Shown: in pieces, positions 3,127-17,141 of the stretch
How positions within the stretch are numbered: position 1 is the first letter of the stretch
Layout of the letters: every line of letters starts with the position of its first letter
Assembly (NCBI GenBank): GCA_037441705.1
Contig: JBBIRR010000062.1
Coordinates: forward strand, 1 to 17,141
From: Ignavibacteriales bacterium
GTDB taxonomy: Bacteria; Bacteroidota; Ignavibacteria; UBA10030; UBA6906
Direction of reading: 5' to 3'
DNA length: 17,141 bases
The notes under the pieces: generated by a model
Seen by the model: the letters and a program-made list of their open reading frames with translations, nothing else
What the model was told of the DNA's origin: nothing
The model's database searches: none
Program-made: the position numbers and the translations under genes

Positions 3127-5880
3127 TCACTTCGTCAGCAACAACTTGATGATTCGGGTAAGCTTCACACTCCCCGTTGCGTCGATCGCTGTAAAGCGAG
3201 CGAGATAGACACCGCTGGCGACGTGCGACGCATTCCACTCCACCTGGTGGTAGCCCGCGTTCATCCTGCCATTGACCAACTCGGCGACAGTTCTTCCCAA
3301 TACATCGTACACGACGAACGATACCGTGCTGTTTTCCGGCAGATCGAACCGTATTGTCGTCACCGGATTGAATGGGTTCGGATAATTCTGATGAACGGCA
3401 AACTCTGTCGGTACCCCATCAGATTGACTCACACCGGTTGTCACCAGACGATAGTCGAACGTATCCGGGCTTGCCACGACAAACTCGCTATCGCTCGCAC
3501 TCACCGTCCATGAATACCATCCCGCTGCCATGGCACTCGTGTTCAGGACTGCACTTGTATCCGAACGCACGGTGATGGTCGAGTCGAATCCTGACCGCCA
3601 CATTCTCAGGCGATACGTGAGCGTATCATCGTTCGCATCGAAAGCGCGGCGCCAGACGAACGTGATGGGGCCGGAGACCGTGCTTGAATCCGCCGGGAGG
3701 CTCAAGCGGAACGGGAGTGGACGATAGTTGAACAGTGGCCGTCTGATCCGGAAGTCGTATTCGCTTGTGACGTACAACTCGCGCCCCTCCTCGGACACCG
3801 TCAGATGATTGGTAAACCGATTGAGAGAAACTCCCTTGTTCACCGGCATATTGGGGTTGCTGACATCGAACACCTGAATGTTCGAGTTGGATGTGCCCTG
3901 AACGTTCAAGACATAGAGGAGATTATTGGCGATAGCAACAACGCGCGCCTCCCCGCTGAGACTGATGTTCGTCAGCGGCTGGGCGACGTTGTTGGAGATG
4001 TCGAAAATCCATACGCCGCCTGCGCCATCCGCCACGTACGCGTAGTTGCCCTGCAAAGCGACATCCCACGAAACACCCGGTGTATCGAACGCCGACCACA
4101 GGAACATGCCTGACGGGTTTGTTACATTGAAGATCAAGAACCCGCCGACACTTGTGCCGCCGCCTGCAGCGAGATACGCAAATAAGGATGTACCGATACG
4201 CCGTACCTGTATGCCCAGCAACGGGTTCGCGTTCGGTACTCCACCACTGCCAAGCAACGTCACGGTAAAATCCGGATTCACACGATACACACTGAGCGAT
4301 TGCTTGTCGAGCACATACAGGCGATCTTCAAAAAATCTTACGACCGACGGGGCGGTGGAGACGAGCGAGCTCGGAGTAAGCACGATGTCCTGCGTCTGGA
4401 GAGGAGCAGCAAGGTTGGCGATAGCGAACACATGCATCCGCTGGTCAAAGTTTGGGATCTGACCCGGCAGCCACACTCGCACAACCGCGATGCTGTCTTT
4501 CGAAGCAACGGCTATCGGTGTTCCGCTGAAATCGGTCGTGGAAATCATCGTGGGGTTGTGCGGATCGGTCACATCGACGATGCGCAGCAAACCGCCGTAC
4601 GTCCAGCTGCCGGAGTAACTTCGCCGCGAATTATTCTGCACCACGAGTGCATACTTCCGATTGCCACGTTGCAGAATACAGTGCGCAACGCCGTAGCCTT
4701 CGCTGGGCGACTGTGCGATGCCGACGACTTGAGCATTCATCGGGTTGAGAACGTCAATAATCCTTACACTCCATCCCTTATCGACGTTCGTGCGGCCTTC
4801 GTTGGCAAGGTAAAGATAGCGACCCTGCACAGTGCTAATGCCGAAATCCACGCCGAAAGTATCGGGCGATTGATAACTCCGCAGCACGCGAGGGTTCAGC
4901 GAGTCTGCCACCGAACTGACCCACCACCCGCGCTGCCAGTGCGTATGATAGTAGAACGTGTCCTGCATCGCCGCGGAATACATCGACTGCGATCCCGAGG
5001 GAAGGATAGAATAGACGAACGCGGGTTGTGCCGGAGTGCTTATATTGAACGCAACAAGCCGCAGCGTGTGTGCAACATACAACCTGTTTCCCTCCACCAT
5101 CGGTGGGCTATACACCGTACCCCCGCCGGGCAGATCCTGCGTTGCGGTAATTTGCATGGCGGACGGGTTGGCAACATTCACAACATAGAGTGTTCGTGAA
5201 CTCGTGTTCGCCGCACAATAGAGAATGGGCAACGCAGGATGTTTCTGTATATGAATGCCCAGACTCGCCGAATCGAGGAAGAGGCTCGAGAGATACGATG
5301 GACTCGTCGGGTTGGAGACATCATACGCCTCGATCGTGGAGGTTGTCGCTAGAAAGGCGACGTTGTTCCGCAGCACGATATCGCCGACAACTCTGCCGAT
5401 GGGCGTGAAGTTCACCACGGTGGGTGCTGTCGGCGAGGTGAAGTTGACCACACTCAAGCCGAAGCGTTCGGCGACATACACGTACGGGCTATCGACCGCC
5501 AGTCGCAAGGCTACGCCCGGCGTACGCACGCGACCAAGAAGTTGCGGCAGCGCGGGATTCGAGATATCAACGATGTTCACGCCGTACATGTCCACCTTGT
5601 ACATTCTATTGTTCCTCACTTCGGCCGTACGGATCGAGGTATAAATAGGAGTCTGGCCTGTTGTCAACGGCTCCGAGTATGTCGGCAGCATCTGTTCGCC
5701 CCAGTATGTTGGCTGCGAGAACACAGTATCGGGCAACAGGCATAGCCCGACGATAAACACACCGCTCATGCAGAGCTTTGCCTCAACGCGAATCGTCCTC
5801 AACCTCATGAACAACGTTTGCATAATCAATCCCTTTCGAAATGTTGAGAAAAGATGATCCATCGCAGAGCGCCCCTTCAT
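3127..5880 (-). CDS. Secreted LVIVD-repeat beta-propeller protein with Fn3/Ig-like domain and T9SS type A C-terminal sorting domain
   Basis: About a dozen (D/N)(V/I)SNPxxP-type repeats, YAYVADG.GGV.IFDIS, and a C-terminal FAVHQNYPNPFNPVTTIRFDLP...VYDVLGRTV..LV.G...AGYH.V.WNAS..ASGVY...KLLLTK. The ATG at 5880 overlaps the upstream stop (ATGA). Alternative starts are 5823 (SD-like AAAGGG) or 5769, which are closer to the hydrophobic signal segment. Confidence 0.85.
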   Translation of the reverse strand: MKGRSAMDHLFSTFRKGLIMQTLFMRLRTIRVEAKLCMSGVFIVGLCLLPDTVFSQPTYWGEQMLPTYSEPLTTGQTPIYTSIRTAEVRNNRMYKVDMYGVNIVDISNPALPQLLGRVRTPGVALRLAVDSPYVYVAERFGLSVVNFTSPTAPTVVNFTPIGRVVGDIVLRNNVAFLATTSTIEAYDVSNPTSPSYLSSLFLDSASLGIHIQKHPALPILYCAANTSSRTLYVVNVANPSAMQITATQDLPGGGTVYSPPMVEGNRLYVAHTLRLVAFNISTPAQPAFVYSILPSGSQSMYSAAMQDTFYYHTHWQRGWWVSSVADSLNPRVLRSYQSPDTFGVDFGISTVQGRYLYLANEGRTNVDKGWSVRIIDVLNPMNAQVVGIAQSPSEGYGVAHCILQRGNRKYALVVQNNSRRSYSGSWTYGGLLRIVDVTDPHNPTMISTTDFSGTPIAVASKDSIAVVRVWLPGQIPNFDQRMHVFAIANLAAPLQTQDIVLTPSSLVSTAPSVVRFFEDRLYVLDKQSLSVYRVNPDFTVTLLGSGGVPNANPLLGIQVRRIGTSLFAYLAAGGGTSVGGFLIFNVTNPSGMFLWSAFDTPGVSWDVALQGNYAYVADGAGGVWIFDISNNVAQPLTNISLSGEARVVAIANNLLYVLNVQGTSNSNIQVFDVSNPNMPVNKGVSLNRFTNHLTVSEEGRELYVTSEYDFRIRRPLFNYRPLPFRLSLPADSSTVSGPITFVWRRAFDANDDTLTYRLRMWRSGFDSTITVRSDTSAVLNTSAMAAGWYSWTVSASDSEFVVASPDTFDYRLVTTGVSQSDGVPTEFAVHQNYPNPFNPVTTIRFDLPENSTVSFVVYDVLGRTVAELVNGRMNAGYHQVEWNASHVASGVYLARFTAIDATGSVKLTRIIKLLLTK

Positions 5881-7913
5881 CGAATGAGGAGTAATTTTTG
5901 TAGGCGGTCTCCTGGACGAGAGCTTTCAAGCCCCGGACCTTCCATGACCACGAAATAAACACCAGACACCACCTGCCTGCCAGAAGCGTCGGCTCCATCC
6001 CAGCGTAAAGAAATGCGGCCAGCTGGTGCACGGTGATGGAAAAGCTCCCGCACTTCTCTTCCCAGCACATCATAGATCCTCACCCGGACGTTGCTGCTCA
6101 GAGGAAGTTCGAATGTTATCTGGGCGGCGGTGGTGCTTCGCATCGGGGAGAAGGGATTCGGGAAAATGTCGAGTAAGCGAAACCGCTGCGGTGTTTCTTG
6201 CGGCGATGGAACGTCGTTCGATCCCGGACGATACTGAAATCGTCGTTCATCCCAACTCCTTCGCACACCTGTACCGTCGGACGCGAGAACACTCCAGCGC
6301 ACCTCTGCCGGCAACGAGATAAACGAACGAACGTTCACCGTGCGCACAGTATCCTGAACAAGCCCGATCAGCGTATCAACGCCTGTGCTTTGTATTCTGA
6401 GCGTATAGACAATCGGACGATTGCTATCCGGGTCGGAGGATGCATTCCAGACAAACCGCACCGAGTCCCCCACAACCGTCGAATCAGGCAGGGGCAGCAG
6501 CAACCGGAACGGACGCGGCGGCACATTGCCTGTCTGCACAACTTCAAGCGTCTGATTGGCAGGAATGGCTGCTACACGCTGCACTAATCCGCTGGGCCAA
6601 CGAATGACGAGACTGTCAACAACACTCAGCGTGTCAAGTCCGAAGTGCACAATCTGCTCATCGTGTCCTGTGCTTCCCGCTCCTGCATCAATCTCTCGAA
6701 CAGAATGTCTTCCGCGAGCGAACAGATCGAGACGCGCACCGACACCCATTCTATTATCGAACACGCCGTGTAACGCCACGCGCAGCCAGTGTCGGGAGTT
6801 TCCGCCGTTGTTGCGCAGGATATTGATGCGCCGCGCGTCGTGCCCAACGATGACCACGTCAAGATCGCCATCGCGATCGAAATCCGCCCAGCTGACGCCG
6901 AAGCCGTCCTGCGGCGAAGCAATCCCTGCACTCGGGGCGATGTTCGTAAACGTCCCGTTACCGTTGTTCCGAAAAAGCCTGTTGGGGTTGACGTGATTGG
7001 TTGCAAAGATGTCGAGCAACCCGTCGTTGTTCACATCGAGAAAGGTTGCCGTGCGAGCATCGCCCACATCGCCGACACCTGCTGAAAGCGTCACGTCGGT
7101 AAACGTGTAATCCCCGTTGTTTCTGAAAAGCGCATTACGATTGCTGGAGATATTGGCGGAGTAGATGTCGAGATCGCCATCGTTATCGTAATCGCCCCAG
7201 GCGGCGGACACCGAAGTCCTCGGATCGCCGAACCCGTTCAAGGTGGGCTGATTCTCGAAATCTCTCGCAGCGATGTTTCTCAACAACTGATTGATGCCGG
7301 CGCGACCAGTGTACACGTCCGTGAAGCCATCGTTGTCAAAGTCGCCCGCAGCACACGTGAATGCGTAGTCCGACGGAGGAAGAGTCATCTGCGCGGTGAC
7401 GTCGACGAACGAGTCGTTGCCAAGGTTTCTGAACACAACCGGCGTCCCGTAGCCGCGTACGCCGAAGATATCCAGCCGTCCATCACCATCATAATCGATC
7501 CAGATCGTGCGCGCAAACGAACCCGGAGCGGTAAACGTCCCCTGGAACGATTGACCCTGGAAATTCTTGAACACGCGTGCGCCGAGCAGGAGGTCTGCGA
7601 AGCCGTCGTTATTATAATCCCCGACGGAAATCGAACTGGTCAACACTCCGGCAAGGCCGCTGCTTGCAGTAACATTCGCAAACGTCGCGGCGTTGTTGTT
7701 CCTGAACAAGAACACACTCACATCGTCTTCGCCGATGATGTCCGGAAAACCATCGTTGTTGTAATCGAACCATGCGCCCTGGTAGCCCAGCCCGTTGATC
7801 AACGGAAGCTGCACACTATCGGACACGTCGCTGAAGGTTTGCGCTGCAGCTCGCAGCGGCGCGAGAAGCATCAGCCAGACAAGGATAGTCGAACGATGAG
7901 AGCAACGAATCAT
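5877..7913 (-). CDS. Secreted FG-GAP/VCBS-repeat ASPIC/UnbV (CRTAC1-like) protein with FlgD-Ig/T9SS-type C-terminal domain
   Basis: Signal peptide (..LLAPLRAAA|QTF); seven DxDxDGxxD Ca-binding blades (DYNNDGFPD, DYNNDGFAD, DYDGDGRLD, DFDNDGFTD, DYDNDGDLD, DVNNDGLLD, DFDRDGDLD); ASPIC motif VHFGL...IRWPSG..Q; tail FPNPFS...IYDVLGREVR...WDGADASGRQVVSGVY. ATGA overlap with the upstream gene. Confidence 0.9.
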   Translation of the reverse strand: MIRCSHRSTILVWLMLLAPLRAAAQTFSDVSDSVQLPLINGLGYQGAWFDYNNDGFPDIIGEDDVSVFLFRNNNAATFANVTASSGLAGVLTSSISVGDYNNDGFADLLLGARVFKNFQGQSFQGTFTAPGSFARTIWIDYDGDGRLDIFGVRGYGTPVVFRNLGNDSFVDVTAQMTLPPSDYAFTCAAGDFDNDGFTDVYTGRAGINQLLRNIAARDFENQPTLNGFGDPRTSVSAAWGDYDNDGDLDIYSANISSNRNALFRNNGDYTFTDVTLSAGVGDVGDARTATFLDVNNDGLLDIFATNHVNPNRLFRNNGNGTFTNIAPSAGIASPQDGFGVSWADFDRDGDLDVVIVGHDARRINILRNNGGNSRHWLRVALHGVFDNRMGVGARLDLFARGRHSVREIDAGAGSTGHDEQIVHFGLDTLSVVDSLVIRWPSGLVQRVAAIPANQTLEVVQTGNVPPRPFRLLLPLPDSTVVGDSVRFVWNASSDPDSNRPIVYTLRIQSTGVDTLIGLVQDTVRTVNVRSFISLPAEVRWSVLASDGTGVRRSWDERRFQYRPGSNDVPSPQETPQRFRLLDIFPNPFSPMRSTTAAQITFELPLSSNVRVRIYDVLGREVRELFHHRAPAGRISLRWDGADASGRQVVSGVYFVVMEGPGLESSRPGDRLQKLLLIR

Positions 7914-8287
7914 GATCCTGCCGTTCTGCGTGGAACACGTTGCGTTACCGATCGTACGATCTCCCGTAGCTCTGGCAGACGCTCTTTGGGCACAAACCCC
8001 GCAGCGCCGATCGCCGACGTTGCTGCGCGGAACGAGGGTGTATCATAGTCGCTCACGACAATGATGCAGGCATCTGGAAAGTCGCGTTTGATTTCCCGTG
8101 TGGCGGCGATGCCGTCCTTCCCGGGCAGTTGGATATCCATGATCACGATATGGGGCTTCACCCTGCGGTACACCTCAAGTGCCTCCTCACCCGTTGCACA
8201 CTCGGCAACGATATCGTTGCTCGAGCAGAGCAATTGACGCAGGATGGTTCGAATGTTCGGGTTGTCTTCAACGATGAGATAGTCCAT
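7910..8287 (-). CDS. Single-domain response regulator (receiver only, NarL-type REC)
   Basis: LIVEDN, phosphoacceptor VIMDIQLPGKDGI, VVS, and conserved Lys in GAAGFVPKE; 125 aa with no output domain. Confidence 0.9.
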   Translation of the reverse strand: MDYLIVEDNPNIRTILRQLLCSSNDIVAECATGEEALEVYRRVKPHIVIMDIQLPGKDGIAATREIKRDFPDACIIVVSDYDTPSFRAATSAIGAAGFVPKERLPELREIVRSVTQRVPRRTAGS

Positions 8288-8317
8288 CCTTCGGCATCTT
8301 CGAGGGGCATCGCTCCC

Positions 8318-8385
8318 AAGCTACGAAGCTTGCACCCGTGCTGCCATCACCGCTCCTACGGATTTTTCTCCGTACCGGTACGGAG
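8318..8385 (-). promoter_or_regulatory. Putative activator-dependent promoter with palindromic operator
   Basis: On the - strand TGGCAG (8346-8341)-N17-TAGCTT (8323-8318). Upstream are TACGGA-N6-TCCGTA (8357-8374) and an overlapping perfect 18-bp palindrome CTCCGTACCGGTACGGAG (8368-8385). Confidence 0.55.
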
Positions 8386-8389
8386 GAGG

Positions 8390-9043
8390 TCAGAGAAGGG
8401 ATTTGTTGTCGAGGGCGAAACGGAGCAGGGCGTTGGTGCCATGCAAGCCGAGCTTCTGGCAAATGTTTGCACGATGCGTCTCGACCGTTCGTTCGCTGAC
8501 AAACATTTCGTTGGCGATGTCTTTTGTGGTGAGATTCCGCGCGATCATCCTCAGGACCTTCCGTTCGGTCGGCGTCAGCTTCGAGAGTCCGGAGAACTGT
8601 TCTGACACGTCGGCGGCGCACAGCGTCCTTTTCACGAGGTGACCCGCGACGCTGGGACTGATGTAATACTTCCCGTCGAGAACATCCTCGATGCACTTCA
8701 CGATTTCCGTCACCACCGCATCCTTAATCACGTAGCCCTGAACGCCCAGCTCCATTGCTCGATCAAAGATCGTCTCCTTGTCGTACATCGTCAACACGAT
8801 GGTTTTGACCGGCAGATGTTCCTGCTGAATGATTTTTCCCACCTCGAGGCCGTTGAGTTTTGGCATGTCGATGTCGATCACGAGAACCCTCGGCTTGAGT
8901 AAGCGTAACAAGCGGATTGCTTCTTCGCCGTTCCCCGCTTCTCCCACCACCTTCCAGGCGGTGTGCTCTTCGATGATATCACGGATTCCTTTCCGCATCA
9001 GCGGATGATCATCGGCCACGAGTATGGTAACGTGTTCACGCAT
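8390..9043 (-). CDS. NarL/FixJ-family DNA-binding response regulator (REC + LuxR HTH)
   Basis: ILVADDHPLMRKGI, VIDIDMPKLNGLE, VLTMY, GYVIKD; LuxR HTH LTPTERKVLRMIA....KDIANEMFVSERTVETHRANICQKL. Confidence 0.95.
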   Translation of the reverse strand: MREHVTILVADDHPLMRKGIRDIIEEHTAWKVVGEAGNGEEAIRLLRLLKPRVLVIDIDMPKLNGLEVGKIIQQEHLPVKTIVLTMYDKETIFDRAMELGVQGYVIKDAVVTEIVKCIEDVLDGKYYISPSVAGHLVKRTLCAADVSEQFSGLSKLTPTERKVLRMIARNLTTKDIANEMFVSERTVETHRANICQKLGLHGTNALLRFALDNKSLL

Positions 9044-9067
9044 AGTCGCAGGATGATGATGGTGTAC

Positions 9068-12000
9068 TCATCGGGCGGGCTCCGATTGCCCGTTGGCGAT
9101 CGGGATGGCAATGCGAAGCACGCTTCCCTTGCCGGGCTCGGAGTCGATCGTCATTGTACCGTTCAGCATTCGCACCCGTTCGAGCATACCGGTGATGCCC
9201 AACCCGCCCGAATGCTCGCTGCTCATTTCACTAAGATTGGGCTTGAATCCCCTGCCGTTGTCTTCGATGCGAACAAGGACCTGCCCCCCCTCTCTTACAA
9301 TGTGCACGCGACAGACGGTCGCGTGTGCATGTTTGAGCACGTTGCTGATCGCCTCCTGCACAATGCGCACAACATTGATCTCGAGGTCACGATCAAGAAG
9401 CCCGTCGATCGTCTCCAGTTCGCCGGTCACAGTCAGCGTCGTCGATTCGCGAACCTTCATCAACAGAGCGCGCAAGGTTTCGGTAAGACCTAACCGATCG
9501 AGTTCCGGCGGACGAAGATTGTGGGAGATCTCACGGACACTCTTGAGCACCTTCGACGCCGTCTCGGAAATCTGGGTGAGATCCTCTCGCAGCGTTCGCC
9601 CGGGATGTTTCCGCTGCATCGTCAAGAGTACTTTGTTCTTGATGAACAGGAGTTCCTGTCCGATGCTGTCGTGCAATTCTTGAGCGATGCGCTTTCGCTC
9701 TTCTTCCATCTTTTCGAGAATCTTGCTCGAGAGTTCCTGTTGATAACGCTTCTGCTTTTCGAGTGCGGAGACTTTTCTCACATAGACCAGGCTCACGACC
9801 GACAGCAGAACAAGAACACCCGCACCTTTGAACCACCACGTGAGATAGAACGGCGGCGTGATGACAATGGCAATCCAGGTACCTTCGTCATTCCAGCGCC
9901 CGTCGTTGTTGGACGCCTTCACGCGAAGCGTATACCGTCCGGGATCGAGATTGGTGTAGCCGCCGTGCCGTTGCGTGGCGGGAACGATGGTCCACTCATT
10001 ATCGAATCCTTCGAGTTTATACCCGTACCAATTCTTTTCCGGCGATGTGTAATTCAACGCAACGATCGAGAACGAGAAGAAGTTCTGGGCATACGACAAT
10101 TCGATCGTAGTTCCCGGCGGGATCGGGTTCGGCAAGGAGAGCGGCTTGTTGAAGACTCTGAAGTCCGTCAGATACACCGGCGGCACGTAATGATTCTCCT
10201 CAACCTGTTCGGGATAGAATGCGTTAAAACCGTTGACGCCGCCGAAGAAAAGCTCGCCTCTCGCACTTGCAAAGTACGCCCCCTGATTGAACTCATTGGA
10301 CTGTATCCCGTCATGCACATCGAATGTCTTCGCTTCCCCCGTCGCAGGGTTGAAGCGGACCAGCCCCTTATTGGTGCTCATCCACAACCGACCCTGTGCA
10401 TCCCGCAGAATCCCGTAGATGACATCAGGCACGCCGCTGCTGTGCCCGTTGAAGACACGCAAAGACGAGTCTTTTCTGCTGAACCGGTAAAGCCCGTCTC
10501 CGTAGGTCCCGAACCAGAGGAGACTATCACCTTGCTCGAGCACAGCATACACGGCGCGTCTCGCCGCCTTGTTGACTTCGAGTGAGGGGGTGAACGTCGT
10601 AAAGCGTTTTGCCCCGCGTGCTTTCACGTAAAGTTCCCCTCTGAAATTCGCCACCCAGATTTCACCCTGGGTCGTCTGATAAAGTGCGGTGATGGGACTC
10701 CCCCAGAGCGGATCGCCCGCTGCATCAGTTGACGTGTAGTGCGTCCAAGCATGCGTGGAAAGGTCAACGCCGCTGACACCGCCGTTGAAGTAGCCGAGAA
10801 AGAGCGTGTTGTGCTTTGCGTCGTAGCAAAGTGTCGAAATTTGGTTGAACAGAGGGGCTTGGTCCGACCGGGCATTCGCGACGAACCGTTGAAAGTGTTT
10901 CGTGCGCTTGCTGTAGCGATTCAATCCTCCTCCGTTGGTCGCAATCCACACACTTCCATCCTTCGACTGACATATAGCCGTGACCCGATCGTTGCTGAGG
11001 CCGTACCGGTTGGCAGGTTGTGCGCGATATGTCGCGATGCGTACACGCCGGACATCGAGATGATTCAAGCCTTCCCCGTACGTCCCTATCCAGAACTCTC
11101 CATCAGCATCCTCGAAGATTGCCGAGATGAGGTTTCCGCGTATGGTGGTTGAGTCGGATTTGTCCTCCATGTAACGCTGAAAGAGATTCTTGCGCCTATT
11201 CCATACCCTGACGCCGTCGGAAAACGTGCCGATCCAGAGGATGCCCGTTTCATCTCGATACAGGGAGACGATGAAGTCGGAAAGATATTTCCGCACAGCT
11301 TGCCGTCGGTGGTCGAACCGAACGAGGCCTGCGTCATACGTTCCGATCCATAGGCGCCCTTCCGGGTCGTTCGCCACCACTTTGATGGTATTGCTCGGCA
11401 AACTCGAAGCGTCGTTCGGCCGCTGGGGGTAACGCACAAATGTCCCTGTCGAATCATCGTATCGATGAAGGCCCCCACCCCAGGTTCCGACCCACACGGC
11501 TCCCGCATGATCGACGTGCACTGTCCAGACGTTATTGGAAGCCAGGCTCTGCCGATTGTTGGGTATGCTCCGATAGTTGATGAACACCGGGCGAGCGCTT
11601 CGTGTGCGCGCGGAGGCAAGGTCGAGTCTCGACACGCCGTTCGATGTTGCGATCCAGAGACGGTGGCGATGATCTTCGGCAATTGCCCGAATGGCATTTC
11701 CAGCAATGCTTGTCATGTCGGCCCGGTCGTGGAGGAACCGAATGAAGCGACCAGCCTCTGCATCATAGAGATTGAGACCATTGCCTTGCGTGCCGACCCA
11801 AAGATTGCCATCGGTATCCTGGAAGAGCGCGGTGACGAAATCGTCGCTGAGCGTCGTGGGATCGTCCTTCTTCGATCTGAAATGATAGAATCGTTTCTCA
11901 TGCGAGACGAACTTGTTCAAGCCTCCACGCTCGGTGCCGATCCACACATTCCCGTCGCGATCGCTCAGCAAACTCCACACGACATTGTCGGAGAGTGAGT

Positions 12001-12259
12001 TCGAATCCGCTGCATTGTGTTTGAACACCGTCATCGTGTAGCCGTCGAAGCGATTGAGACCATCCTGGGTGCCGAACCAGAGGAATCCCAACCGATCCTT
12101 GACGATCGCGTACACCGTGGATTGCGAAAGTCCGTGTTCTAATCCTATCCGATCGAAGCCGCCGATCTGCTGCGCCGTCACCGCGGCAGGAAGCAGCCAC
12201 AGGAGTGCCACTGCGCGCCGTAGGAAGGCACGTGTCCACATCCCTGCGCCGGTTGTCAT
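9068..12259 (-). CDS. Sensor histidine kinase: periplasmic two-component-regulator beta-propellers + Y_Y_Y domain + TM + HisKA_3 + HATPase_c
   Basis: GLSQSTVYAIVKDRLGFLWFGTQDGLNRFDG and many D.DG.LW(I/V)GT..GL repeats; YKLEGFDNEW...YTNLDPGRYTLRVKASNNDGRWN; PPFYLTWWF + TM; ERKRIAQELHDSIGQ; RIVQEAISNVLKHA, IEDNGRGF, GLGITGMLERV. The start is placed at ATG 12259 (12298 or 12241 are alternatives) because of the signal peptide. The ORF-track start at 12496 is probably too long. Confidence 0.92.
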   Translation of the reverse strand: MTTGAGMWTRAFLRRAVALLWLLPAAVTAQQIGGFDRIGLEHGLSQSTVYAIVKDRLGFLWFGTQDGLNRFDGYTMTVFKHNAADSNSLSDNVVWSLLSDRDGNVWIGTERGGLNKFVSHEKRFYHFRSKKDDPTTLSDDFVTALFQDTDGNLWVGTQGNGLNLYDAEAGRFIRFLHDRADMTSIAGNAIRAIAEDHRHRLWIATSNGVSRLDLASARTRSARPVFINYRSIPNNRQSLASNNVWTVHVDHAGAVWVGTWGGGLHRYDDSTGTFVRYPQRPNDASSLPSNTIKVVANDPEGRLWIGTYDAGLVRFDHRRQAVRKYLSDFIVSLYRDETGILWIGTFSDGVRVWNRRKNLFQRYMEDKSDSTTIRGNLISAIFEDADGEFWIGTYGEGLNHLDVRRVRIATYRAQPANRYGLSNDRVTAICQSKDGSVWIATNGGGLNRYSKRTKHFQRFVANARSDQAPLFNQISTLCYDAKHNTLFLGYFNGGVSGVDLSTHAWTHYTSTDAAGDPLWGSPITALYQTTQGEIWVANFRGELYVKARGAKRFTTFTPSLEVNKAARRAVYAVLEQGDSLLWFGTYGDGLYRFSRKDSSLRVFNGHSSGVPDVIYGILRDAQGRLWMSTNKGLVRFNPATGEAKTFDVHDGIQSNEFNQGAYFASARGELFFGGVNGFNAFYPEQVEENHYVPPVYLTDFRVFNKPLSLPNPIPPGTTIELSYAQNFFSFSIVALNYTSPEKNWYGYKLEGFDNEWTIVPATQRHGGYTNLDPGRYTLRVKASNNDGRWNDEGTWIAIVITPPFYLTWWFKGAGVLVLLSVVSLVYVRKVSALEKQKRYQQELSSKILEKMEEERKRIAQELHDSIGQELLFIKNKVLLTMQRKHPGRTLREDLTQISETASKVLKSVREISHNLRPPELDRLGLTETLRALLMKVRESTTLTVTGELETIDGLLDRDLEINVVRIVQEAISNVLKHAHATVCRVHIVREGGQVLVRIEDNGRGFKPNLSEMSSEHSGGLGITGMLERVRMLNGTMTIDSEPGKGSVLRIAIPIANGQSEPAR

Positions 12260-12308
12260 AAGGGCACCATTACTGACGAAAGCTCTTGTTGTTCGCATCT
12301 CACTGCAG

Positions 12309-12337
12309 AAAATACAGAACTTCGTCGGGTGCTGCAA
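12309..12337 (-). promoter_or_regulatory. Putative sigma70-type promoter for the sensor kinase operon
   Basis: On the - strand TTGCAG (12337-12332)-N17-TATTTT (12314-12309), just upstream of the candidate ATGs. Confidence 0.45.
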
Positions 12338-12563
12338 GCGTGGTGTATGCGACACACTCACGTCGAGAATGATGAAGCGATGCAGACTGCCGATGTGGGT
12401 GCGGAGATGAGCTGAGACGAGCGCGCTGGGCAAGTGAACGACGGGCCACCGGATTACCTTCGACGCAATCGCTAAGAAACAAAAGTGACCGTACAAATCC
12501 CTCGCAAACTCTCACATCCTTACGATGGGCTTGCCCGTCAGTCTATGCGTTGAGGGACGATCG

Positions 12564-12860: not shown

Positions 12861-13285
12861 ATGCCCCTCAGCGAAGCCGACACCCGCGCCAAACTAATTG
12901 ACCCAGCGCTTCACGCCCGCGGCTGGACTGAGAATCTGATTCGCCGCGAGGAGACCGCAGGAGCCATTGAGGTCATAGACGGTAAGCCACGGAAGCGCGC
13001 CCGCGGCCGTGTGGACTACCTGTTGCGCATAGCCGTCAATGCCGAAAGCCAGCCGGTGGCCGTCGCGCTGATCGAAGCCAAGACCGAACACCTGCCGCCC
13101 GATCACGGACTTGAGCAGGCCAAGCTTTACGCCTCCTGTAAACGGCTCAATGTGCCTTTCTCTTTGCCAGCAACGGGCATATGTTCGTAGAGTTCGAGGC
13201 ATTAACTGGCAAGAGAGGTAAGTCTAGATGGCTGAATGAGTTTTTGAAACCAGATTGTTTTCAAGGATATGGCTTAAGCAAATGA
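12861..13285 (+). pseudogene. hsdR: Frameshifted, truncated type I restriction enzyme R subunit (EcoEI/EcoAI-like HsdR N-terminal nuclease domain)
   Basis: SEADTRAKLIDPAL..RGW, GRVDYLL, ALIEAK (PD-(D/E)xK), GLEQAKLYA. After ...LNVPF at 13160 the homologous-looking sequence continues in a shifted frame (FASNGHMFVEFEALTG...LNEF) to TGA at 13283-13285. No helicase domains follow. Confidence 0.8.
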
Positions 13286-13941
13286 AAGGCCAGATTAAAT
13301 CCAAACAGCGCGTTGCCGAATACGGCGAGGTTTTCACCAAGTCGGAAATCGTGAAGGCCATGCTCGACCTGGTGAAGCACGAGACCGAGCGGATTGATTC
13401 GCGCTTTCTAGAGCCGGCCTGCGGGACGGGGAATTTTCTGACGGAAATCCTTCGCCGCAAACTTGACCGGGTAGAAAAAACCTACCGCCGCAGCCAGTTG
13501 GACTTCGAGCGCTATCTGGTGCTGGCAGTATCGTCTATTTACGGCATCGATATTCTGGAGGACAATGTCATCGCCTGCCGGGAGCGGCTCTTTCAAATGG
13601 CCAACGAGCGTTATACCGCTTTGTTCAAGAAAGAGGCCAAAGAGGCCTGCCGCCTCTCCCTGCGCTACATCCTCCAAAAAAATATTATTTGGGGCGACGC
13701 GCTATCCCTTCAAACGGTTGGGAAGAATCCTGTTCCGATTGTCTTTTCTGAATGGACGCTGGTGAATGGAAGCAAAATCAAACGACGGGACTTTGTCTAT
13801 AAAGAATTAATTGAGCAATCGAGTCTGCGTGAATTGCCGTTGTTTTCCGATGTTGGGGAACATGTTTTCATTCCTTCACCGATCGCAGATTACCCACCGG
13901 TGCATTTTTTGGAGATTTCCCATGCCTATGGCGACAACTAA
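13282..13941 (+). CDS. DNA methyltransferase-like protein, SAM-binding portion only (219 aa)
   Basis: [14 protein letters not shown] (motif X), [12 protein letters not shown] (I), [11 protein letters not shown] (II), NIIWGDAL (III); no NPPY/DPPY/SPPY catalytic motif IV. ATG 13282 is preferred over TTG 13255. Confidence 0.85.
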
Positions 13942-15472
13942 TTACAACCCCGACGTCCTCTCCTGTCTGGCGAATTTGAGCAGTGATGAAGTCTTCACCC
14001 CGCCCAACATCGTCAACCAGATGTTGGACCTGCTGCCGGCGAACCTCTGGCACGACCCGAACGTGACCTTTCTGGACCCGGCGTGCAAGACTGGCGTCTT
14101 TCTGCGCGAAATCGCCAAACGGCTGCTCGCCGGGCTGGAAGAAGCCATTCCCGACCGGCAGGAGCGCATCAACCATATCTTTACCAGGCAACTCTTTGGC
14201 ATCGCCATCACCGAAATCACGGGCCTGCTCTCGCGCCGCAGCGTCTACTGCTCCAAGACCGCCAACGGCAGATACTCAGTCGTGGAAGGATTTGGCGACG
14301 AACAGGGCAATATCCGCTTCCGGCGCATCGAACACACTTGGGAAGACGGCCGCTGCGCTTGGTGCGGCGCCAGCCGCAGCGAATACGACCGCGGCCCGGA
14401 CCTGGAAAGCCACGCCTATGAATTTATTCACACCGATAAACCGGAGGAGATTTTTAACATGCAGTTCGATGTCATTGTCGGCAATCCGCCATATCAGTTG
14501 AGTGATGGGGGTGGGGCAGGATCAAGTGCAATACCTATTTACAATTTGTTCGTGACCCAAGCAAAGAAATTACGTCCAAGACATTTGACGATGATTATAC
14601 CTTCTCGTTGGTTTTCAGGTGGCAAAGGCTTGGATCAGTTTAGACATGAAATGTTGAATGATAGGAGAATCCGACATCTTGTGGATTTCTCTGACTCTAT
14701 CGATTGCTTTCCAGGAGTTGATATTGCTGGTGGAGTTTGTTACTTCTTATGGGATAGAGACAATCCAGGTGATTGTAGAGTGGTCAATATTCATAAGGGC
14801 AAGTCAACTATTTCTGTTAGACCTTTGAATGAATTTGAAACCTTTATTAGAGACAGTATTGCTGTAGCAATAATAAAGAAAGTGAAGGCTAAAGGAGAAG
14901 CGTCTCTATCTGAGATTGTTTCAAGCAGGAAGCCTTTTGGTCTTGAATCGAAGCAAAGGTCATACTCAAAAGGGGATTTAAGATTGGTTTGGAGCGGTGG
15001 AGAGGGAGTAATACCGTCGTCTAAAGTGCCATCTGGTAAAAACCTAATAGACAAATGGAAAGTATTGCTATCCAAAACATCACATGACCATGCAGGGCAA
15101 CCAGATAAGGATGGAAAGAGAAGAGTTCTTTCTCGTATTGAAGTATTGCCTCCAAACACAGTCTGTACAGAATCATATTTAATAGTTGGACCGTTTGCCA
15201 ATAAAAAACAAGCGCAAAATATGGAGATATATTTAAAAACAAAGTTTTGTCGCTTTCTTATTTCAACAATTCTGCTAACTCAGAATATTGCAAGAGACAA
15301 GTTTAGCTTCGTACCGTTACCAGATTTGAGTGTAGCATGGACGGATGCTCTATTATATAAAAAATATGGCTTATCACCTGAAGAAATTGAGTTTATCGAA
15401 TCACGCATTCGCCCGATGGAAAACGGTGAGGAGGTTCTCAAAATAGAAAACGAAGAGGACGACGATGCCTAA
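13922..15472 (+). CDS. Eco57I-domain N6-adenine DNA methyltransferase (gamma-class order) with C-terminal target-recognition region
   Basis: [63 protein letters not shown]-terminal [22 protein letters not shown]. Start at 13922 (GGAG SD at 13911) or 13928; the ORF-track TTG 13811 is too long. Confidence 0.9.
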
Positions 15473-17141
15473 CGACTTTTTCCCACCCCGGCCGTCTGCT
15501 GCGCCCAAAATCTATGCCTACGAGGACACCCATCCGCAGTACGCGGGGTTGCTCAAGATCGGCTATACCACCAAGGACGTGCGCGAACGCGTGGCGGCGC
15601 AATATCCCACCACCCGCCCAGGTGATCCGCCTTACCGTATCGTGCTGGAAGAATCGGCCATGCGCAATGACGGCACGACCTTTACCGACCGCGACGTGCA
15701 CCGCTACTTGCGCGAGCGCGGGATCCCCAACCCGGAAGGCGAGTGGTTTCAGTGTACCGTGGAAGACGTGCGCGCCGCCATCCTGGCCATACAACGGGGA
15801 GAATTGAACGAAGAGCAGCGCACCCTCGTTTTCTCTATGCGGCCGGAACAACAGCAGGCCGTTGAACGAACCGCTGCTTACTTTCGGCAGTTCCACCCCA
15901 AAACCACCGCCAAGCCTTCGCATTTCCTCTGGAACGCCAAGATGCGCTTCGGCAAGACCTTCGCCGCCTACCAACTGGCCAAGAAAATGGGCTGGAAAAA
16001 GATTCTAGTACTGACCTTCAAGCCCGCTGTGCAAAGCGCCTGGGAATCAGACCTCAAAAGCCATGTAGATTTCACCGGTTGGCAGTTCATCTCCAGCAGG
16101 GATCTGCCCGTCCAAGGCGACCCGGTCTACGACAAGAGCCGCCCGGTGGTGTGCTTTGGCTCCTTTCAGGATTACCTGGGAAAGAATCCCAGCACCGGCG
16201 GCATCAAGACCAAGAACGAATGGGTGCACGCCACCCACTGGGACTGCGTCATCCTGGACGAATACCACTACGGCGCCTGGCGTGAAAAAGCCAAAGACCT
16301 TTTCGAGGGCGAGGAGGCAGATGAGATCCGCTTTGCTCTGGGCGAGGCAGCGGAATTCCTGAAAGAGGCCGACGAGGAACTGGAGAATTTCCTCCCCATC
16401 ACCAGCGACCACTACCTGTATCTTTCCGGCACGCCCTTTCGTGCCATCGCCTCGGGAGAGTTCATCGAAGAACAGATTTTCAACTGGACCTATTCGGACG
16501 AACAGCAGGCCAAAGAGTCGTGGCAAGGCCCGGATAACCCCTACGCTATGCTGCCGCGTATGGTGCTCCTTACCTATCAACTGCCGGATGAGATCCGCGA
16601 AATCGCCCTTCAGGGCGAGTTCGATGAGTTCGACCTGAACACCTTCTTTTCCGCCACCGGTCATGGGCATTTCGCTCAATTCAGATACGAGGACGAGGTT
16701 CAAAAATGGCTGGATCTAATCCGCGGCGCCTTCTTGCCCGCCGCGGTGGATGACCTCAAGCTCGGCAAAGAGCGGCGGCCGCCTCTGCCCTTTTCCGACC
16801 GGCGGCTGCTCAACGTCCTTTCGCATACGCTGTGGTTCTTGCCCAGCGTTGCCGCCTGTCATGCTATGGCTAACCTGTTGGCCGAGCGGCAAAACCGCTT
16901 TTACCGCGATTACGAGGTCATCGTGGCCGCAGGCGCAGAGGCGGGCATCGGTGTGGATGCCCTAAAACCGGTGCTACGGGCAATGGGCGACCCCCTCCAA
17001 ACCAAGACCATTACCTTGACGTGCGGCAAGCTGACCACCGGCGTCACGGTGCGGCCCTGGACGGGCATCTTCATGCTGCGCAACTCCTCCAGCCCAGAAA
17101 CCTACTTCCAGGCCGCTTTCCGCGTGCAATCGCCGTGGACC
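15465..17141 (+). CDS. T5orf172 (GIY-YIG superfamily) nuclease-SF2 DExH helicase fusion, putative restriction subunit; partial, open at window end
   Basis: Not in the ORF track because there is no stop. Manual translation: [46 protein letters not shown]...DRDVHRYL...GEWF; MRPEQQQAV; [11 protein letters not shown] (Walker A); ILDEYHYG (DEYH at 16257-16268); YLSGTPF; LTTGVTV; [12 protein letters not shown]. 559 codons; overlaps the MTase stop by 8 nt. Confidence 0.9.

Follow-up and report, generated by a model that had tools for sequence, protein, structure and literature searches.

Complementary methyltransferase motifs in two neighbouring genes of a DrdVI-like locus from an Ignavibacteriales bacterium

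Introduction

How is the cofactor brought to the active site of an adenine methylase whose catalytic chain lacks the usual residues for binding it? This question is raised by the right end of an Ignavibacteriales contig (assembly GCA_037441705.1, contig JBBIRR010000062.1), where three co-oriented, overlapping genes encode, in order, a small methyltransferase-like protein (M1), a large one (M2) and a nuclease-translocase (Table 1). The window, that is the whole stretch of DNA analysed here, is the entire contig (C62) of 17,141 bp; its parent assembly comprises 3.8 Mb in 92 contigs and is scored as 100% complete.

A complete γ-class enzyme has motifs X, I, II, III and IV together with a recognition domain in one chain, and neither protein answers to this description. 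The small chain has no motif IV and nothing of what follows it; in the large chain the motif I glycine, the motif II acidic residue and motif III are missing; and the full set is present only in the pair. The original prediction, made from the sequence of the window, was that the two genes encode a split, two-subunit methyltransferase. The two-subunit part of that proposal is upheld, the small gene being an intact partner in almost all loci and M1 plus M2 of both DrdVI and MaeIV being active when cloned together. Its novelty is not: to judge by sequence, the pair is M1 and M2 of the DrdVI-type ‘split methylase’ family, which is already catalogued by REBASE. The window itself is one more copy of that family and nothing beyond that, and the cofactor question is independent of it. 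What is new from the comparison reported here is the existence of single-chain relatives that join a small-type front half to a large-type catalytic half, and the finding that no segment of M2 is better conserved than its odd front half.

Results

Motif content of the small and large proteins

The small protein corresponds to the front, cofactor-binding half of a γ-class N6-adenine methylase (motifs X, I, II and III), followed by a conserved C-terminal β-hairpin and tail of ∼75 residues. Family alignments were made of 40 small and 49 large proteins. The canonical S-adenosylmethionine (SAM) motifs that had been read in the 219-residue protein are at the predicted places, and their key residues are invariant, or nearly so, in the 40 sequences (Table 1). 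The catalytic NPPY is absent from all 40 small-family proteins, and no [NDS]PP[YFW] motif of any kind occurs in the small open reading frame (ORF) of the window. In the hairpin (PIVFSEW / KRRDF), residues F155, E157, W158, K167, R168 and F171 are invariant. The AlphaFold2 (AF2) model (predicted local distance difference test score, pLDDT, 81.8) has strands at residues 42–45, 86–90 and 135–139, the hairpin at 154–175 and a further strand at 196–203, and so describes three Rossmann strands with the protein's own hairpin as a cap. When this model was used as a Foldseek query there was no match at E <= 0.001; the best matches, all with E above 0.04, were weak ones to the front halves only of CamA, BsaXI, LlaGI (5ffj) and BrxX. 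Pfam gave a marginal MmeI_Mtase match (27 bits, residues 38–143 only), and scans with PADLOC, NCBIfam and Pfam yielded no specific family name for the small protein. For the methylase genes, PADLOC and NCBIfam returned generic methylase and Type IIG matches only.

The large protein comprises an atypical front half, a Cys/His insert, an NPPY catalytic core and a variable C-terminal region. It matches Pfam Eco57I with 129 bits (residues 90–263) and MmeI_Mtase with just 16 bits. The lysine at the motif I glycine position and the alanine at the motif II acidic position, both noted in the original prediction, were confirmed by alignment to the small family and to PglX. The proposed check by family alignment also came out in its favour, in that K56, G58 and F60 of motif I, G93 and T97 of motif II and NPPY itself are invariant in the large family (Table 1), for which the motif II consensus is GIAITE. 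No GDxL motif III follows motif II in any of the 49 large-family proteins, again as predicted. The stretch where it would be expected, between motifs II and IV, is occupied by four invariant Cys and His residues, which may bind zinc. The AF2 confidence is low across this stretch (residues 108–165), and the cluster is kept in the M2 protein of plasmid pDrdVI and missing from the fused Bacillus enzyme described below. The median identity of the large protein to 48 relatives is 72% over residues 1–110, 67% over residues 166–300 and 37–40% over residues 301–516. From its fold match to CamA/TaqI-type enzymes, this last region is presumed to recognise the target site. With the AF2 model of the whole large protein as query, the best Foldseek match was CamA (E 3e-17), followed by PglX, M.BseCI, BpuSI, MmeI and M.TaqI.

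Table 1. Positions of the methyltransferase genes, motifs and neighbouring features in the window, and of related genes in other loci
Feature	Sequence	Position	Strand	Evidence or conservation
HsdR N-terminal fragment, 109 aa	window	12861-13190	+	NCBIfam E 7.4e-16, residues 1-96 of 768-aa EcoAI-type HsdR
M1-type small subunit, 219 aa	window	13282..13941	+	translation, Pfam, pDrdVI identity, AF2
Small motif I, EPACGTGNF, residues 44-52	window	13411-13437	+	all nine invariant, 40/40 sequences
Small motif II, YGIDI, residues 87-91, acidic D90	window	13540-13554	+	Y87, G88, D90 invariant (40 sequences)
Small motif III, WGDAL, residues 137-141	window	13690-13704	+	G138, L141 invariant; D139, A140 at least 90% (40 sequences)
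M2-type large subunit, 516 aa	window	13922..15472	+	translation, Pfam, pDrdVI identity, AF2, Foldseek
Large atypical motif I, DPACKTGVF, residues 52-60, K56 at expected Gly	window	14075-14101	+	K56, G58, F60 invariant 49/49
Large atypical motif II, FGIAIT, residues 92-97, A95 at acidic position	window	14195-14212	+	G93, T97 invariant 49/49
Cys/His cluster C110, H138, C145, C148, putative zinc-binding insert	window	14249-14365	+	all four invariant 49/49
Large motif IV, NPPY, residues 188-191, catalytic	window	14483-14494	+	invariant 49/49
Variable C-terminal region, residues 301-516, presumed target-recognition domain	window	14822-15469	+	identity profile, fold match
Restriction subunit, T5orf172 (GIY-YIG-like) nuclease + SF2 (superfamily 2)/ResIII helicase	window	15465..17141	+	Pfam
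T5orf172 domain, residues 17-108	window	15513-15788		Pfam 7.9e-12
ResIII helicase domain, residues 124-279	window	from 15834		Pfam 1.3e-05
Single-chain methylase, Flavobacteriaceae metagenome-assembled genome (MAG)	L238	6001-7512		
Single-chain methylase, Flavobacteriaceae MAG	L239	6001-7527		
Single-chain hybrid and truncated nuclease fragment, Niastella populi	L160	4980-6882		
Distant two-gene form, Bacillus	L303	1956-7023		
Second-class small partner	L277	2024-3040		
Second-class small partner	L266	2041-3051		
Second-class small partner	L257	274-1233		
Second-class small partner	L097	3102-3944		

Homology of the two proteins and the complementary pattern

The two proteins had been thought to begin with related segments, and a profile–profile comparison of the two families bears this out. 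Small residues 14–104 align with large residues 21–109 (probability 97.8%, E 7.7e-13, 88 columns, 36% identity) in a register that sets small G48 opposite large K56 and small D90 opposite large A95. On this profile evidence the shared N-terminal segment is one of true homology, consistent with paralogy of the two chains. When the large-family profile was compared with the solved structure of PglX/BrxX, the lysine fell at the glycine of LDPACGSG and the alanine at the aspartate of FGLDID; the whole-protein E value was weak (0.0063), but the motifs align unambiguously. Searches of the solved structures with the single proteins as queries gave nothing useful, and the large-family profile reached only PglX.

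The complementary motif pattern is kept in both families, in DrdVI and in the distant two-gene form described below. A Lys-Ser-Gly motif I is present also in the pDrdVI M2 protein and in two fused giant enzymes.

Relationship to DrdVI

The best plasmid match of the small protein is pDrdVI (CP031164) of Deinococcus wulumuqiensis NEB 479. This plasmid encodes a 212-residue ‘DNA methyltransferase’, a 539-residue Eco57I-domain protein and an 851-residue helicase in the same order as in the window. Comparison by tblastn gave 44% identity for the small protein (query residues 5–216, E 5e-50), 48% for the large (residues 9–504, E 1e-160) and 56% for the nuclease-helicase (residues 4–559, E 0). Gene order, the homology of all three proteins and the fusion of a GIY-YIG-type nuclease to a translocase thus place the locus among the DrdVI-type systems. 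The motifs PACGSGNF, GIEL and GDAL are found in M1.DrdVI, from which NPPY is missing, and M2.DrdVI combines DPCTKSGVF and GIGITQ with the Cys cluster and NPPY.

M1-2.DrdVI is listed by New England Biolabs (NEB) and REBASE as a Type IIG N6-methyladenine (m6A) methylase of GCAGCC, and M1 and M2 cloned together without the nuclease gene gave site-specific m6A in Escherichia coli (PMC6430315). The complementary pattern therefore occurs in an experimentally active pair. Similarly, M1-M2.MaeIV of Methanococcus aeolicus, cloned without its nuclease gene, is reported to have produced m6A at GCACY in E. coli (PMC10113651). In another report, DrdVI is described as ‘a fused translocase and REase’ (restriction endonuclease) with a GIY-YIG domain, and M1.DrdVI and M2.DrdVI are mentioned (PMC4996451). 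The wording ‘split methylase’ was found in the literature in the available text of PMC10113651 only, and a literature search for the phrase ‘split methyltransferase’ together with ‘restriction-modification’ had no match.

The window and pDrdVI share the three genes, their order and the complementary motif pattern. The window copy differs in its recognition domain and in lying on a chromosomal contig, where a type I hsdR remnant adjoins it and the contig end truncates its nuclease gene.

Pairing of the two genes across loci

Next, 80 loci were collected with the small gene as the seed and 79 with the large gene. The original prediction had named frequent pseudogenisation of the small gene as counting against it; the ORF is whole in 79 of the 80 small-seeded loci and is cut by a contig end in the other. 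The large gene lies downstream in 77 of these 80, the remaining three running out of DNA. The spacing is <=200 bp in 72 of the 77 (median −22 bp, overlapping), and five loci have inserts of 0.6–1.2 kb. In the window itself the small and large genes overlap by 20 nt, the large-gene ATG sitting 20 nt inside the small gene with a GGAG ∼8 nt 5′ of it, and the large and nuclease genes overlap by 8 nt (ATGCCTAA). When the large gene is the seed, the small gene is found upstream in 72/79 loci, five having no room for it and two lacking it. With very few exceptions, the small and large genes are inherited together.

Of the 71 loci that show the back half of the large gene, 55 have the nuclease-helicase gene after it and the other 16 have <1.5 kb left. 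The trio is found across many phyla, with small-subunit proteins in Bacteroidota, Chloroflexota, Cyanobacteria, Deinococcota, archaeal MAGs and other lineages. A gap of 0.8–2.4 kb separates the large gene from the nuclease gene in 18 of 50 complete trios and mostly holds one or two unrelated passenger ORFs. Trios with such a gap include L012, L015, L023, L025, L034, L043, L048, L052, L053, L056, L060, L072 and L078. Judged by eye, these ORFs look like DUF1016/YhcG-type nucleases, Bro-N/RhuM-like proteins and AbiEii-type nucleotidyltransferases.

Single-chain relatives and distant two-gene forms

A set of 110 longer proteins retrieved with the small protein was then classified by architecture. 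In 69 of them a small-type front half is joined directly to a large-type NPPY/recognition half, and the front half peculiar to M2 is missing; 66 of these 69 have a canonical C-G-x-G. Because such single-chain relatives exist, a small-type front half and a large-type catalytic half are able to make one ordinary methylase fold. Their junctions vary: some stop straight after motif III (NPPY at residues 146–168) and drop the hairpin, as in P0191, P0166 and P0158, and some keep the whole small protein. A further 15 are whole or partial fusions of the small and large proteins, including the 743-residue P0129, and 17 consist of the small module only. The remaining nine join the small protein to part of the helicase. 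These were considered as a Rosetta-stone link between M1 and the nuclease and were set aside, since most keep part of each protein and resemble deletion products.

Two of the single-chain genes, in the Flavobacteriaceae loci L238 and L239, are 60% identical. No helicase lies close to either, and the genes around both encode a BNR-repeat protein, a polyketide-cyclase-like protein and FtsX; in this shared housekeeping-type setting they have the look of stably maintained orphan methylases. In Niastella populi the hybrid gene is followed by a truncated, 111-residue piece of T5orf172, without a helicase. This locus seems to have arisen by deletion, as a decayed form of the system that has kept its fused methylase.

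A tree of the front halves was built with FastTree from 145 columns, using 59 sequences of single-chain proteins, 40 of small proteins and 3 of fusions; a further 10 single-chain and 6 fusion sequences were dropped for coverage. Most single-chain forms lie outside the group that holds all the small proteins, and at least four state changes are forced, at low resolution.

Two-gene forms also exist at a greater distance. In one of these (L303 and L313) a 253-residue small-type protein with FLEPAAGEGAF and YGVEL precedes a 1454-residue T5orf172-like/helicase/methylase fusion from Bacillus, which has DLYTKSGLY and no motif II acidic residue. A 1312-residue helicase-methylase fusion with EINSKSGLY is paired with a second class of small partner. 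Members of this class (280–338 residues, no Pfam match, EVFTPSW and LEI(S/T)CGEAPY) sit upstream of helicase-methylase fusions of 1310–1345 residues and are distantly homologous to the small family (hhalign 92.5%). In locus L097, which lacks the usual small gene, a member of this class stands in its place; the 280-residue product keeps the motif II and III acidic residues and shares 47% identity with the small protein that partners a giant fused helicase-methylase.

Discussion

A model for the division of labour

To judge by homology and gene order, M1 and M2 make up the modification part of an ATP-dependent restriction-modification operon of three genes, the third of which encodes a GIY-YIG/T5orf172 nuclease fused to a helicase-type translocase. 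We propose that, together, M1 and M2 would methylate one adenine in a short asymmetric site, as reported for DrdVI (GCAGCC) and MaeIV (GCACY). M2 would recognise the site via its variable C-terminal domain and flip the adenine into the NPPY pocket, and M1 would supply the canonical SAM-binding half-site that has been lost from M2's own front half. That front half, with its invariant K-S-G and Cys/His insert, may have taken on another conserved role, for example docking M1 or coupling to the motor-nuclease. The nuclease-translocase would cut unmethylated sites, as in Type I/ISP-like systems.

The chance that M2 reads the site and holds the adenine at NPPY while M1 provides the canonical SAM site is, we consider, about even. 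This reading is favoured because of the single-chain relatives, because M1 keeps all the SAM contacts and because M2, including that of the active DrdVI, is without them. The near-obligate pairing of the two genes and the replacement of M1 in L097 by a distantly homologous partner also speak for it. Several points weigh against it. Both the requirement for M1 and its assignment as the SAM-binding chain we infer from sequence. The front half of M2 (residues 1–110) is its best-conserved segment and hence gives no sign of decay. Alone, M2 models as a complete CamA/PglX/TaqI-like γ-class methylase with the front half in its normal place (AF2 pLDDT 80.2), so that no space is evident in which M1 could complete the fold. 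The invariant lysine (K56) could serve a non-canonical SAM pocket, and M.TaqI, an active enzyme, is likewise without the first motif I glycine. One of the 74 loci with room for it (L113) has the large and nuclease genes and no small-type gene within 3.5 kb upstream, an unrelated NOV_C-domain gene being found where the small gene is expected. The tree that places the split form within the single-chain diversity is the low-resolution one from 145 columns. Finally, no report of M1 or M2 alone, of SAM binding or of a structure was found in PMC6430315, in PMC10113651 or PMC4996451 as far as their available text goes, supplements excepted. Prediction of the complex from both family alignments returned ‘no answer’ (score 0.00 in two runs, without controls) and is no evidence either way.

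Alternatively, M2 could be self-sufficient, in line with the second possibility raised by the original prediction, a small chain that senses SAM and regulates the nuclease. The SAM pocket of M2 would then be non-canonical, with K56, T97/E98 and the Cys/His insert replacing the lost contacts, and M1 would be an accessory SAM-binding subunit, acting as a cofactor sensor, an assembly factor or a methylation/restriction switch on or with the nuclease-helicase. The conserved front half, the complete model of M2 and the locus with M2 and a nuclease gene and no M1 all agree with this account, as does the presence of K-S-G in three divergent architectures; moreover, SAM is known to act allosterically as a cofactor in restriction by Type I and III enzymes. 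However, E98 has no acidic counterpart in the M2 of DrdVI (GIGITQ), a system active by experiment, and the fused Bacillus enzyme has no acidic residue there at all. The name under which NEB cloned the methylase is M1-2, not M2, and the front half of the single-chain relatives is of the small type, not the M2 type. We regard self-sufficiency of M2 as a serious alternative, if a somewhat improbable one.

The proposal that M1 carries the SAM for M2 can be extended to a composite, switchable active site, which on the sequence evidence we hold to be unlikely. The half-Rossmann M1 would carry SAM and dock in trans on the NPPY half of M2, the M2 front half, with its K-S-G and zinc-type insert, would be a retained pseudo-half gating that docking, and engagement of M1-SAM would decide between methylation and restriction.

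It is very improbable that M1 is an independent enzyme with its own substrate and with non-canonical catalytic residues in the PIVFSEW / KRRDF hairpin. Conservation of its C-terminal 75 residues would fit such a role, but neither a catalytic motif nor a DNA- or RNA-binding domain can be recognised in M1, its best structural matches (all below significance, as given above) are to the front halves of DNA methylases only, and the hairpin is wholly absent from some single-chain relatives. A reading of the small ORF as the decayed remains of a second methylase, retained by chance beside an intact one, is suggested by its lack of motif IV and everything after and by the precedent of the HsdR fragment nearby, but is excluded by conservation: at least 8000 proteins of ∼218 residues match it at E <= 0.001 (the best 120 listed being of 215–271 residues, 66–86% identical and from many phyla), the ORF is intact in almost every locus, its family has a mean column identity of 69% against 59% for the large family, and none of the 80 related loci has the HsdR fragment.

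Comparison with other systems and implications

The locus also resembles systems of the DnmA(YeeA)-YeeB-YeeC/OspHL35III type, which, as reported (PMC2731913, PMC4752239, PMC9973331), likewise combine a single-recognition-domain methylase, a superfamily 2 helicase and a GIY-YIG/T5orf172 nuclease. Literature searches on T5orf172/GIY-YIG combinations led to the YeeA/DnmA papers only. By analogy with these, single-strand m6A at an asymmetric site would be expected. In these reports, however, the methylase consists of a single chain of the MmeI family, its motifs are canonical, and the helicase and nuclease are separate proteins. The window has a two-chain Eco57I-family methylase, an extra M1 gene and a fused nuclease-helicase, and so falls outside this type.

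Type ISP enzymes (LlaGI/LlaBIII) similarly bring together a nuclease, a translocase, a γ-class methylase and a recognition domain as one ATP-dependent unit, but do so in one polypeptide, whereas the window has three ORFs and does not belong with them. The Type ISP nuclease is of the Mrr type, and we know of no separate cofactor-binding subunit described for these enzymes. Natural split methylases are known among the C5 enzymes, where M.AquI α/β and M.EcoHK31I each consist of two polypeptides encoded side by side. These are simple splits of one fold, whereas the catalytic chain in the window retains a second, altered and highly conserved front half.

The architecture is among the commonest restriction-modification forms in uncultured bacteria and is documented by no more than a REBASE label and two methylome notes. 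If M1 does carry the cofactor of M2, the pair would become the first demonstrated case of an N6-adenine DNA methylase that divides cofactor binding and catalysis between two chains; half-methylase ‘stubs’ should then not be annotated as pseudogenes, nor M2-type genes as stand-alone methylases. If the composite, switchable site were also correct, it would be a naturally occurring methyltransferase fold that is complemented in trans and carries its own decoy half, common to several helicase-linked restriction families, and ‘single-polypeptide’ giants would in fact have a second subunit.

Genomic context of the locus

The nuclease-helicase ORF ends with the contig at residue 559. Its relatives are of ∼835–890 residues, so that ∼280 C-terminal residues are missing, and the 3′ end was not found elsewhere among the 92 contigs of the assembly. 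Upstream of the small gene, the ORF encoding the HsdR-like fragment is, by its NCBIfam match, a truncated type I HsdR remnant. It is regarded as part of the insertion site and not of the system because it is absent from all 80 related loci, and the DrdVI-type cassette appears to have been inserted into a type I system or to have taken its place.

The base composition shifts within the large gene at ∼14417 (residue 165): the GC content is 0.59–0.64 over residues 1–165 and 0.38–0.41 over residues 166–516, and is again 0.59 in the helicase gene. The helicase is 91% identical to that of locus L003, but the recognition region is merely 31–32% identical to its L003 counterpart. From these sequence features the catalytic and recognition half of the large gene (∼14417–15472) looks like a swapped-in cassette. 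The breakpoint coincides with the domain boundary at which the single-chain relatives have their junction.

Elsewhere on the contig, 3127–12496 of the minus strand encodes large secreted-type proteins with LVIVD repeats and a Por_Secre_tail (type IX secretion system sorting domain), as well as FG-GAP/ASPIC domains; this content is typically Bacteroidota-like and unrelated to the split methylase. The remaining contig also encodes a 1142-residue sensor kinase with Reg_prop propellers and a Y_Y_Y domain.

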